Origin: an uncultured bacterium
Lineage (GTDB): Bacteria; Auribacterota; Erginobacteria; Erginobacterales; Erginobacteraceae
Assembly (NCBI GenBank): GCA_964465735.1
Contig: CAYXKT010000001.1
Span: forward strand, 10,721 to 74,720
Direction: 5' to 3'
Length of the DNA: 64,000 bases
The notes below the pieces were generated by a model. The model saw only the letters and a program-made list of their open reading frames with translations, made no database searches and was not told where the DNA came from. Of this stretch, positions 11,407 to 13,472 are shown piece after piece (position 1 is the stretch's first letter; each line of letters begins with the position of its first letter). The position numbers and the translations under genes are program-made.

Positions 11407-12400
11407 TTAAAGATCCGCCGAGCTCCTGACCGCGATCCCAGGGCGGTTGAGAATGTGGGTGTAGATCGTAGTCGTGCTCACCTCGCTCTGGTCGAAAAGC
11501 TCCTGCTCGGTGCGGATACTGTACCCGGCCTTTAAAAGATGAGTGGCGAAGGAGTGCCGAAGGGTGTGTCAGCTCGCCCGCTTGGTCAACCCCGCCTTCC
11601 GCGTCGCCGCCTTGATTGCCCTCTGCAGCCCGATCGAATGCATATGATGCCGCCGGATCTTTGCGGAACGCGGGTCCGCCGAAAGGCGCCCGGCGGGAAA
11701 GACATACTGCCGGCCCCACTCCCGGGCGGAGTTTTGTCCTTCCGCTCCAGGGCGAGAGATATATATCTCCCCGAACCCTGGAAACTCCCCCCTTCTTTAG
11801 ATCCTCCTTATGGGTGGTCTTGACTTTCTCCAGGTGTTTCCCGGAGGGCAGGCCGGTATCTATCCGGCAATATCGTTCCCCGGTCCTTATTGCCTTTCCC
11901 GTCCCGGATCACGATCTGATTTTGCCCGAAGTCAATGCCCTGTACCCGGTGGCGGATACACTCGATCAACCGAAATCCCGCCCCGTAGAGCAGGCCGGCC
12001 ATCAGGGAATATGGTTCGCTCAAGGCTTCCAGCAGACGGCCCATCTCTTTTCTCCCCAGTACCATCGGCAACCGTTTGGGCTTCCGGGCCGGGGCGAAAT
12101 CGGCGATCAGGTCGAGCGGTTCCTTCAGCGCCTGGTCATAAAAGAAGACCAGGGCGTTGAGGGCCTGCCGCTGGGTAGGAGGGAGACCTTCCTCTCCACG
12201 GCCAGATATTCCAGGTACTCTCTCACCTCTTTCGCCCTCATCTCCCGGGTCGCCTTCAACCCGTGAAAGGAGAGAAACCGTCGGGCCCAGGGAGAGTTGA
12301 TCGAACAGATTGAACTGCTTGGAGAAGACCTTGCGGCACTGAAAGAGAAGCGCAGTAAGACTCTCAAGCATCTCCCCTTATCTGAACTACCCGAGTCCGA
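11407..12400 (-). pseudogene. intI: Integron-type tyrosine recombinase (IntI), inactivated by ≥3 frameshifts
   Basis: Pieces in different frames: FLSFHGLKATREMRAKEVREYLEYLAVERKVS, then ALNALVFFYDQ...LLYGAGFRLIECIRHRVQGIDFGQNQIVIRDGKGNKDRGTILP, then [47 protein letters not shown] (the IntI-specific additional domain), then [40 protein letters not shown]. Confidence 0.7.
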
Positions 12401-12725
12401 TCGATTTTCTCAATTGGCTTCTACGCGAAAGCACTTCGTTGACTCTATCAAGATGATTGACTATTGTACTGAAACGTCTTTGGCTGGCATCTTGCGTGAT
12501 TCGTTGGCTCGTCCCAAGGATGCACGAGCTTTGTTGCGCGATATCTATACAAATGAAGCCGACATATTTCCAGACGAGGAAGCGGGGACCTTGACTGTCC
12601 GTTTGCATCATCTGACGAACCGGTTGTCGGATCAAGCGGCAAAAGATCTTGCCAAGCATCTCAATAACAGTGAGATTATCTATCCAGGTACAAATCTACG
12701 CTCGCAGTACGAATTGGTATCATAA
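12297..12725 (+). CDS. Hypothetical protein in the attI-proximal position; its C-terminal part could be a remnant of a DDE transposase (uncertain)
   Basis: 142-aa ORF divergent from intI. No confident family assignment. The 5' end overlaps the intI start region. Confidence 0.25.
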   Translation: MIEQIELLGEDLAALKEKRSKTLKHLPLSELPESDRFSQLASTRKHFVDSIKMIDYCTETSLAGILRDSLARPKDARALLRDIYTNEADIFPDEEAGTLTVRLHHLTNRLSDQAAKDLAKHLNNSEIIYPGTNLRSQYELVS

Positions 12726-12897
12726 TAATTCCGTGAAGTCAGGACATCTGAATCTCTGTTGGCACAAAATAGTGTATTGCTAACGCCCATAGACATTGGT
12801 ATCAATAGTGGCATCATATAGTGGCGTCGGATATCAACAACACTCTTGATGAAATGAGGCGGCACCGGCGGGTATCCGTTTCGCGGACTTATGCCGG

Positions 12898-13080
12898 GTG
12901 TGTACTCACTACTCCGGCGAACCGCGACAGAAGGGCACGAGCCATCGGATCTATAAAACCCCCTGGAAGGGTGATCCAAGGGTCAATATCCAGAACGCGA
13001 AAGGCAAGGCGAAGGACTATCAGGTAAGGCAAGTCTTGATAGCCATCGAAAGGATACAATATGAAAGCGGCGGAAAGTGA
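12898..13080 (+). CDS. hicA: HicA-like mRNA interferase toxin with a degenerate N-terminus
   Basis: RQKGTSHRIYKTPWKGDPRVNIQNAKGKAKDYQVRQVL matches the HicA core (KGSHxxxKHP...GKDL...GTL). Only a GTG start is available. It overlaps hicB by 20 nt. Confidence 0.45.
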   Translation: MCTHYSGEPRQKGTSHRIYKTPWKGDPRVNIQNAKGKAKDYQVRQVLIAIERIQYESGGK

Positions 13081-13393
13081 TCACTATACGTATCGCGTGA
13101 CCTGGTCCGAAGACGATAGAGAGTATGTCGGACTCTGCGCAGAGTTACCCAGTTTGAGCTGGTTGGCCTCTTCTGCTGAAGCAGCTCTTCGGGGAATACG
13201 TCCTGTCGTGGCGGACGTGGTGACGGATATGAAGAGGACCAGCGAAGAACTTCCCGATCCACTTGCTGAGCGTCGTTTCAGCGGAAAATTTATGGTGCAG
13301 GTTCCTCCCGGAGTTCACAGGAATCTTGCGGTGGAGACAGCTGAGGCAGGCGTAAGTCTGAATCGCCTGGCGAGTGCCAAGCTCTCGCGATAG
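13061..13393 (+). CDS. hicB: HicB-family antitoxin
   Basis: YTYRVTWSEDDREYVGLCAELPSLSWLA...RFSGKFMVQVPPGVHRNLAVETAEAGVSLNRL is the canonical ~110-aa HicB antitoxin. Confidence 0.75.
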   Translation: MKAAESDHYTYRVTWSEDDREYVGLCAELPSLSWLASSAEAALRGIRPVVADVVTDMKRTSEELPDPLAERRFSGKFMVQVPPGVHRNLAVETAEAGVSLNRLASAKLSR

Positions 13394-13399
13394 TTATGT

Positions 13400-13472
13400 G
13401 CCAACCATTCGCTCCAGCAGACCCGGGTCCGCGGTGTGGGCCCGGACAGCTGAGCTAATCGTTATATGCTGG
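13400..13472 (+). other. Candidate integron attC recombination site downstream of hicB
   Basis: TGCCAAC-CATTCGCTCCAGC...GCTGAGCTAATC-GTTATAT resembles R''-L''...L'-R'. It has imperfect pairing with a bulged base and a central palindrome GACCCGGGTC. Compare the aadA1 attC GCCTAAC-AATTCGTTCAAGC...GTTAGGC. Confidence 0.4.

Follow-up and report, generated by a model that had tools for sequence, protein, structure and literature searches.

A very probable remnant of a chromosomal integron, with an insertion-sequence fragment where attI would have been, at the edge of a polysaccharide locus of an uncultured bacterium

Class 1 integrons truncated by IS26 and the IS1111-attC elements are known cases of integrons interrupted by insertion sequences. 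Inactive integrons are also on record: Cury et al. (2016; PMC4889954) report intI pseudogenes near 15 of 279 clusters of attC sites lacking integron-integrases (CALIN) and discuss single attC sites as possible degraded cassettes. Toxin–antitoxin cassettes that carry their own promoters are presented as typical of chromosomal integrons in the account of Richard et al. (2024; PMC13108822). Here, we describe a locus in 64,000 nucleotides of DNA from an uncultured Erginobacteraceae bacterium (contig CAYXKT010000001.1; this whole stretch is called the window), which is very probably the non-functional remnant of a chromosomal integron. One intact attC site and one intact gene, hicB, survive in it, without an integrase, an attI site or a Pc promoter. 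Like the chromosomal integrons with inactivated intI and the CALIN with intI pseudogenes, it combines a recognizable IntI-specific region with attC-bounded cassettes, and insertion sequences are implicated; unlike those elements as they are presented by Cury et al. (PMC4889954), it keeps one complete attC and the R'' stub of another. The occurrence of intI pseudogenes beside cassettes and the part played by insertion sequences in integron decay are already established, and the locus adds a well-resolved case in which the death of a chromosomal integron can be traced cleanly and in full, probably through an insertion sequence landing in attI, deletion of the integrase gene and its promoter, and subsequent decay of the toxin–antitoxin cassettes. 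Coordinates are those of the window and are collected in table 1; comparison sequences and proteins are designated by L and P numbers, respectively.

For profile and structure comparisons, the minus-strand frames of the integrase gene were joined into a stitched reconstruction of 290/291 aa. This protein scored 312.3 bits on the NCBIfam integron integrase model TIGR02249 (cutoff 265; profile positions 29–311 of 315), against 101 bits on XerC (cutoff 335) and 96 bits on XerD (cutoff 330). Its best solved relative is VchIntIA/IntI4 (PDB 2A3V, E-value 1.9e-60), with which it forms one unbroken alignment including the IntI-specific insert, the extra domain that contacts extrahelical attC bases, whereas Xer structures align only piecewise, with at most 84 bits. 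Judging from these comparisons, the recombinase is an integron integrase and not a Xer or phage integrase. An earlier, sequence-only reading of this DNA had proposed an intI pseudogene with an IntI-specific domain; both peptides that it quoted occur verbatim in the minus-strand frames (11407–11740), and the XerC/D-like classification that it had named as the contrary outcome did not emerge. The closest intact relatives are 445–472 aa long and share 77% (P0001 and P0002) or 66–67% (P0007) amino acid identity with the reconstruction, while named IntI relatives, from Nitrospirota, Planctomycetota, Desulfobacterota, Gemmatimonadota and Cyanobacteria, are 45–58% identical. The idea that the element points to the lineage of its host thus found no support, as the named relatives are spread over several phyla and the closest ones come from metagenome contigs. 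Unlike VchIntIA, which has 320 aa, the window copy is a pseudogene and its intact relatives possess an added N-terminal SAM-like domain. In the clade nearest the pseudogene (P0002, P0007 and P0012), this N-terminal extension (residues 1–160) is a second Phage_int_SAM_4-like domain (PF13495, 30.8 bits), which is lost from the window copy.

Lesions were mapped on a nucleotide alignment with the intact P0002 gene on L011 (81.5% nucleotide identity). Five frameshifting indels, one nonsense codon, a 5' truncation and a lost catalytic His (table 1) show that the integrase gene is dead, and the "at least three frameshifts" of the sequence-only reading understated the damage.

The attC site was sought with two covariance models built from attC sites of related intact integrons, R1 from three short and R2 from twelve long sites, the window sequence being left out of both. 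Each model gave one significant match in the 64 kb, and both located it at 13399–13467 on the plus strand (R1: 40.2 bits, E-value 8.7e-10; R2: 40.1 bits, E-value 4.8e-9), directly after hicB, where an attC had been proposed from the sequence. R1 and R2 also pick up the arrays present in L011, L012 and L034. The search for further attC sites downstream, which had also been suggested, returned none in the 64 kb with either model and filters off, the next-best matches having E-values of 0.48–0.53 and lacking AAC/GTT. In the predicted fold of the site, AAC pairs with GTT, the spacer is partly paired and one L'' base is bulged; no T-run follows the stem on its 3' side. Rfam, which holds no attC family, gave no match at the hairpin in either gathering or E-value mode and returned only a group II intron fragment. 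On this sequence evidence we regard 13399–13467 as a genuine attC.

Further support comes from the arrays that accompany intact relatives of the integrase, L012 (IntI P0007) and L011 (IntI P0002), in which small co-oriented open reading frames (ORFs) lie divergent from intI and attC sites are of two types, of ~128 and ~70 nt. In these arrays, the R'' of an attC and the GTTNNNN at the head of its cassette are exact reverse complements in 15 cases out of 15. The window obeys the same rule twice: GTTGGCA (12758–12764) pairs with TGCCAAC (13399–13405) for cassette 1, and GTTATAT (13461–13467) with ATATAAC (13909–13915) for cassette 2, GTTGGCA being found once and ATATAAC three times on the plus strand of the 64 kb. 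L012 also contains, on its minus strand (about 8775–8950, 7111–7290, 5102–5280, 2595–2770 and 1130–1300), an ORF-less element of ~190 nt with an attC-like hairpin, copies of which stand at attI and behind four attC sites. Its junction is in each case ...ACG|ATAAGCG instead of the canonical G|TT and its end ...GCTCAGCTCACCG|TT, and it may be a repeated non-coding cassette.

Comparison with other arrays identifies cassette 1 as a complete mobile cassette with an intact attC. Window positions 12758–13463 are 92% identical in nucleotides to L034 2092–2793, the similarity starting exactly at G|TTGGCA and collapsing right after the CG|TT of the attC, with different flanks on both sides. The window copy differs from L034 by a 5-nt insertion in the leader and by the −1 deletion at 12863 that puts hicA out of frame. 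Profiles gave too little to name this gene (Pfam E-value 0.033 for a 60-aa ORF and nothing for the stitched protein; nothing in NCBIfam or PDB), and HicA was therefore identified by homolog search: the stitched 86-aa protein has 2757 homologs of 85–86 aa, several of which are named "toxin HicA" by NCBI, and the best one, 92% identical, sits in L034/L035, an array with six attC matches. The sequence-only reading was right that hicA is damaged and that hicB is intact, but the hicA lesion is a single frameshift and not an N-terminal degeneration. The intact toxin and antitoxin genes of a HicAB pair are thus no longer found together, hicB alone being whole; its dN/dS of 0.40 derives from 14 substitutions, too few to inform on selection. 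hicB may be transcribed as an orphan antitoxin from the promoter-like site of the cassette.

Cassette 2 is more decayed. L036–L039 share with window 13447–13754 a unit of 85% nucleotide identity that starts G|TTATATGCTGGATAATCTC (also written G|TTATATGCTGG) and has different flanks. In its intact form, it carries genes for a DUF2281 antitoxin (74 aa) and a PemK/MazF toxin (115 aa; Pfam E-value 7.9e-12) and closes with an attC beginning GCATATAAC. In the window, the similarity ends at 13754 with the antitoxin gene, and the PemK/MazF-type toxin gene is lost or unalignable (13755–13908). The DUF2281-like ORF noticed earlier is real, yet it carries an in-frame GAG to TAG change (13665–13667). The attC of cassette 2 is cut off after R'', and the sequence that follows is not attC-like and runs into a truncated PMT_2 paralog. 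Both units therefore behave as gene cassettes do, being bounded by G|TT and found in different arrays with different neighbors (L034/L035 for cassette 1 and L036–L039 for cassette 2). In content they resemble the toxin–antitoxin cassettes of sedentary chromosomal integrons, which are type II pairs with their own promoter, here hicAB and DUF2281/PemK; unlike in the cassettes portrayed by Richard et al. (PMC13108822), both toxins and one antitoxin are inactivated here, and the cassettes can no longer stabilize anything.

Between the truncated integrase gene and cassette 1 lies the right end of an insertion sequence of the Transposase_29 family. Its orf3 (12297–12725) encodes the C-terminal 142 aa of the transposase and matches Pfam PF21804 at positions 423–562 of 562 (E-value 5e-32); in an exhaustive search, full-length relatives of 560–770 aa matched orf3 only at their extreme C-terminus. 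Complete elements (L029–L032) have three ORFs, encoding a helix-turn-helix (HTH) protein of 161–163 aa, the N-part of the transposase (405–433 aa) and orf3 (142–153 aa), the last being split from the N-part either through a shift of frame (L029) or through an in-frame TGA (L030–L032), and they are bounded by the terminal inverted repeats TCAGGACTCCT... and ...AGGAGTCCTGA. Such a full element, with two inverted repeats, HTH ORF, N-part and C-part, is not present at the locus, which holds orf3 and the right repeat only: the left ~1.9 kb is absent, and no left inverted repeat was found in the 64-kb window. Seven nucleotides, ATCTCTG, separate the right repeat from the crossover point of cassette 1. 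The attI sites of relatives end ATATCTG|TT or ATTTCTG|TT (L011, L023, L024 and L027), whereas every attC ends CG|TT, which suggests that 12752–12758 are the last 7 nt of an attI of which the rest is deleted. The sequence-only reading had seen small genes divergent from intI, as they indeed are; what it overlooked is that they do not face an otherwise complete platform, since intI has lost its 5' part and attI has been destroyed by the insertion-sequence fragment. As in the integrons interrupted by IS26 or IS1111-attC elements, an insertion sequence in a recombination site would have been followed by deletion of integrase sequence; unlike in those cases, the element belongs to the PF21804 family, has three ORFs, lies in attI and not in attC, and is itself truncated.

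The three components of the sequence-only reading, an intI pseudogene that retains the IntI-specific domain, a cassette with damaged hicA and hicB, and an attC, are all borne out. These features fit a scenario in which the ancestral integron had intI on the minus strand and, beyond attI, a series of plus-strand cassettes headed by a hicA-hicB toxin–antitoxin pair and a DUF2281-antitoxin/PemK-toxin pair. A Transposase_29-family insertion sequence would have entered attI 7 nt from the crossover point; a deletion would then have taken away ~1.9 kb at its left side along with the remainder of attI, the promoter region and codons 1–180 of intI, and point mutations would have built up afterwards.

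Some observations weigh against this reconstruction. The order of events, insertion and then deletion, is one that we infer, and it is complicated by the presence of the same internal insertion-sequence breakpoint, within 3–6 nt, in the unrelated L016. The assignment of attI depends on just 7 nt. The folding energy of the 81-nt attC region is unexceptional (z = −1.1 and −1.3), and stability alone therefore cannot identify the attC. Finally, the 3' end of the pseudogene is either polymorphic in the population or recombined. Sequence L057, from a different sequencing run (SRR29792794), is 100% identical to the window over 11634–12904 and hence has the same truncation and frameshifts, but it diverges by 13% from window positions 11280–11633, where it has the Cys codon and no stop codon, an intact LLGHSDVSTTMIYTHVL motif (with the catalytic GH) and another downstream flank. 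This haplotype suggests recombination or two copies within the population. The divergent, less decayed part of L057 comprises the last ~230 nt of intI and the downstream flank, and the group II intron fragment is absent from it.

The breakpoint shared with L016 raises another possibility for the middle of the locus. A piece 77% identical in nucleotides, made of orf3 and the right repeat, occurs in L016–L021 (L016 7995–8456) amid unrelated polysaccharide genes (26–33% amino acid identity to those of the window), with the same internal left boundary within 3–6 nt. Such a shared boundary fits poorly with simple random deletion. The dN/dS of the ORF in this piece is 0.13, and in complete elements orf3 forms a reading frame of its own. 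The 461-bp piece could accordingly be a discrete unit that moved or was repeatedly generated, and not the product of a random deletion, though we consider this unlikely. In that event, insertions beside recombination sites and polysaccharide loci would be the work of a sub-element or domesticated C-terminal transposase module, and this module, rather than a simple deletion, would have killed the integron. Two forms of such a module were considered and set aside: a 462-bp gene cassette was rejected because no attC stands at its 3' end and no R'' complements its first bases, and for a two-ended mini insertion sequence no left inverted repeat exists in the window or in L016. No traces of intI or attC were found in L016–L022.

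A different origin of the whole arrangement would be CALIN-like: an integrase supplied from elsewhere would have delivered the cassettes to a secondary GTT site outside any attI, and the intI fragment would have come to lie nearby through rearrangement, without decay in situ. IntI-driven insertion of cassettes off their usual site is documented (bioRxiv 10.1101/2022.09.11.507474; PMC4889954), the putative attI amounts to 7 nt, and the region is a patchwork of group II intron, insertion-sequence and glycosyltransferase pieces. However, the intI remnant and the cassettes are canonically divergent with the insertion-sequence fragment as their sole separator, the flank ATCTCTG|TT resembles the attI ends of relatives (ATATCTG|TT) and not an attC end (CG|TT), and the attC shares its type with the sites in the arrays beside the closest IntI proteins, which makes such a delivery improbable next to the decay of a resident integron.

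Still less credit can be given to the view that the integrase gene is truly intact and that its lesions are sequencing or assembly errors. Single-base indels may be artifacts in what appears to be a metagenome-assembled contig, but among the lesions there are also an insertion of 13 nt, a nonsense substitution and the loss of 539 nt from the 5' end, where the gene abuts foreign DNA. Moreover, Logan contigs from five other runs (L001–L005) are 100% identical to the window over 12113–14545 and, with L057 from the sixth run, 11634–14545 is reproduced exactly. The assemblies of six other runs thus match across the junctions and lesions, which are therefore not assembly artifacts, and the error explanation is effectively refuted. 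As for a XerC/D-like or phage integrase next to a 69-nt hairpin that would be a terminator or generic palindrome, the ordinary folding energy and the lack of an Rfam match there would suit it, but it is refuted, and its probability negligible, given a TIGR02249 score above cutoff when Xer models stay below a third of theirs, an IntI4 alignment unbroken through the IntI-specific insert, covariance-model E-values of about 1e-9, no T-run past the stem and precise cassette boundaries.

Measured against a functional integron, the decayed locus retains the IntI-specific domain, as sequence within a pseudogene, and the attC architecture, and it has no intact intI, attI or Pc. The Pc promoter would lie in or near the 5' end of intI, all of which is missing along with the spacer towards attI. 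Lacking integrase, attI and Pc, the locus can no longer excise, capture or shuffle cassettes, and the surviving attC could be used solely if an integrase came from elsewhere. Of the 64 one-kb bins of the window, 53 have a positive GC skew, which weakly suggests that the bottom strand of the attC lies on the leading-strand template, given as the usual orientation in the chromosomal integrons discussed in PMC13108822. Nor does the locus qualify as a CALIN, for which two or more attC sites must lie within 4 kb in the absence of an integrase, as it has one attC and a 7-nt R'' stub. The default rules of IntegronFinder ask either for a called integrase protein or, in the case of a CALIN, for two or more attC sites; having a single attC and an integrase gene that cannot be called, the locus probably goes unreported under them. 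Remnants of this kind can thus escape standard tools, which matters when "single attC sites" are counted in genomes. In other respects the remnant is a genuine but unremarkable case of a familiar type of genetic fossil; it has no functional effect on the host, save possibly through an orphan HicB antitoxin, and it opens no new question.

Table 1. Coordinates of the integron remnant, its lesions and adjoining features in the window
Feature	Coordinates	Strand	Description
Integron remnant	to 13915		Extends to 13915, not 13472
intI pseudogene	11407..12290	-	Codons 181-470 of 470-aa relative
intI lesion	junction 12290/12291		5' truncation: sequence begins at reference nt 540, preceding 539 nt (about 180 codons) lost
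intI lesion	12178		-1 nt
intI lesion	11839		+1 nt
intI lesion	11792		+13 nt
intI lesion	11765		-2 nt
intI lesion	11733		-1 nt
intI lesion	about 11569		Cys codon to TGA at codon 417 (RAS*HTLRHSF)
intI lesion	3' end		LLGHSD to LFDQSE (GH to DQ), catalytic His lost
Transposase_29 (PF21804) insertion-sequence right end	12291..12751	+	461 bp; orf3 and right terminal inverted repeat ending ...GTCAGGACATCTGA at 12751
Putative attI remainder	12752..12758	+	7 nt, ATCTCTG; ends at crossover G|TT
Gene cassette 1	12759..13461	+	703 bp; promoter-like site 12790-12817, frameshifted hicA, intact hicB, attC
hicA	12821-13080	+	-1 frameshift at 12863, not N-terminal truncation
hicB	13061-13393	+	110 aa, intact; HicB Pfam E-value 1e-10
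attC of cassette 1	13399..13467	+	R'' TGCCAAC 13399-13405; L'' GCTC[C]AGC with one extrahelical base; central GC hairpin; L' GCTGAGC; R' GTTATAT 13461-13467
Gene cassette 2, decayed	13462..13915	+	DUF2281 antitoxin gene 13536-13757; R'' stub ATATAAC 13909-13915
Truncated PMT_2 glycosyltransferase paralog	13925..14329	+	Abuts cut attC of cassette 2; paralogous gene 18141-19910
Group II intron D1-D4 fragment	11080..11217	+	Not part of the integron; Rfam RF02003, 57.9 bits against gathering score 49

The remnant lies in a debris zone of gene fragments that borders a polysaccharide locus. Genes on the plus strand between 14874 and 34836 encode a CDP-glycerol glycerophosphotransferase, glycosyltransferases, a flippase, methyltransferases and a sulfatase-like protein, along with a phosphoenolpyruvate (PEP) mutase-nucleotidyltransferase fusion, a thiamine pyrophosphate (TPP) decarboxylase and an iron-containing alcohol dehydrogenase (Fe-ADH), a trio typical of phosphonate synthesis. 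The sequence-only reading had correctly observed that genes share the orientation of the cassettes for ~22 kb, and it had added that an integrase-dead integron freezes its cassette array. The genes from 14.9 to 34.8 kb are long, tightly packed, overlapping, operon-like and attC-free, and they form a surface-polysaccharide/phosphonate cluster, not a cassette array; the uniform plus orientation of the genes from 14.9 to 35 kb gives a long frozen array next to no chance in the face of large, overlapping, operon-like biosynthesis genes and no attC by either model with filters off.

On the cassette side of the debris zone, the truncated PMT_2 paralog has its full counterpart, the gene at 18141–19910, within this cluster: window 18255–18563 is 72.6% identical in nucleotides to L001 1873–2181, which corresponds to window 13985–14293. 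The whole of 13925–14844, on the plus strand, is a pseudogene patch comprising the N-terminal 134 aa of the PMT_2 paralog and two short ORFs that resemble C-terminal membrane segments of a GT2 enzyme. On the integrase side, the group II intron fragment, which follows closely on the 3' end of intI, has neither a reverse-transcriptase ORF nor D5/D6. Further left, a minus-strand ORF at 9900–10268 encodes a GmhB-like haloacid dehalogenase (HAD) phosphatase that matches profile positions 74–181 of 182 only; it is probably a 5'-truncated gene marking the left edge of the debris zone. Beyond the polysaccharide cluster, a second group of small defense/addiction-type genes at 34921–39748 includes those for an Unstab_antitox-domain protein, an HTH-Peptidase_M78 protein and a SecB-like protein, the last of which overlaps an HTH_3 protein in a manner reminiscent of toxin–antitoxin–chaperone systems. 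A weak SAM-like tblastn match to IntI is found at 38900–39016.

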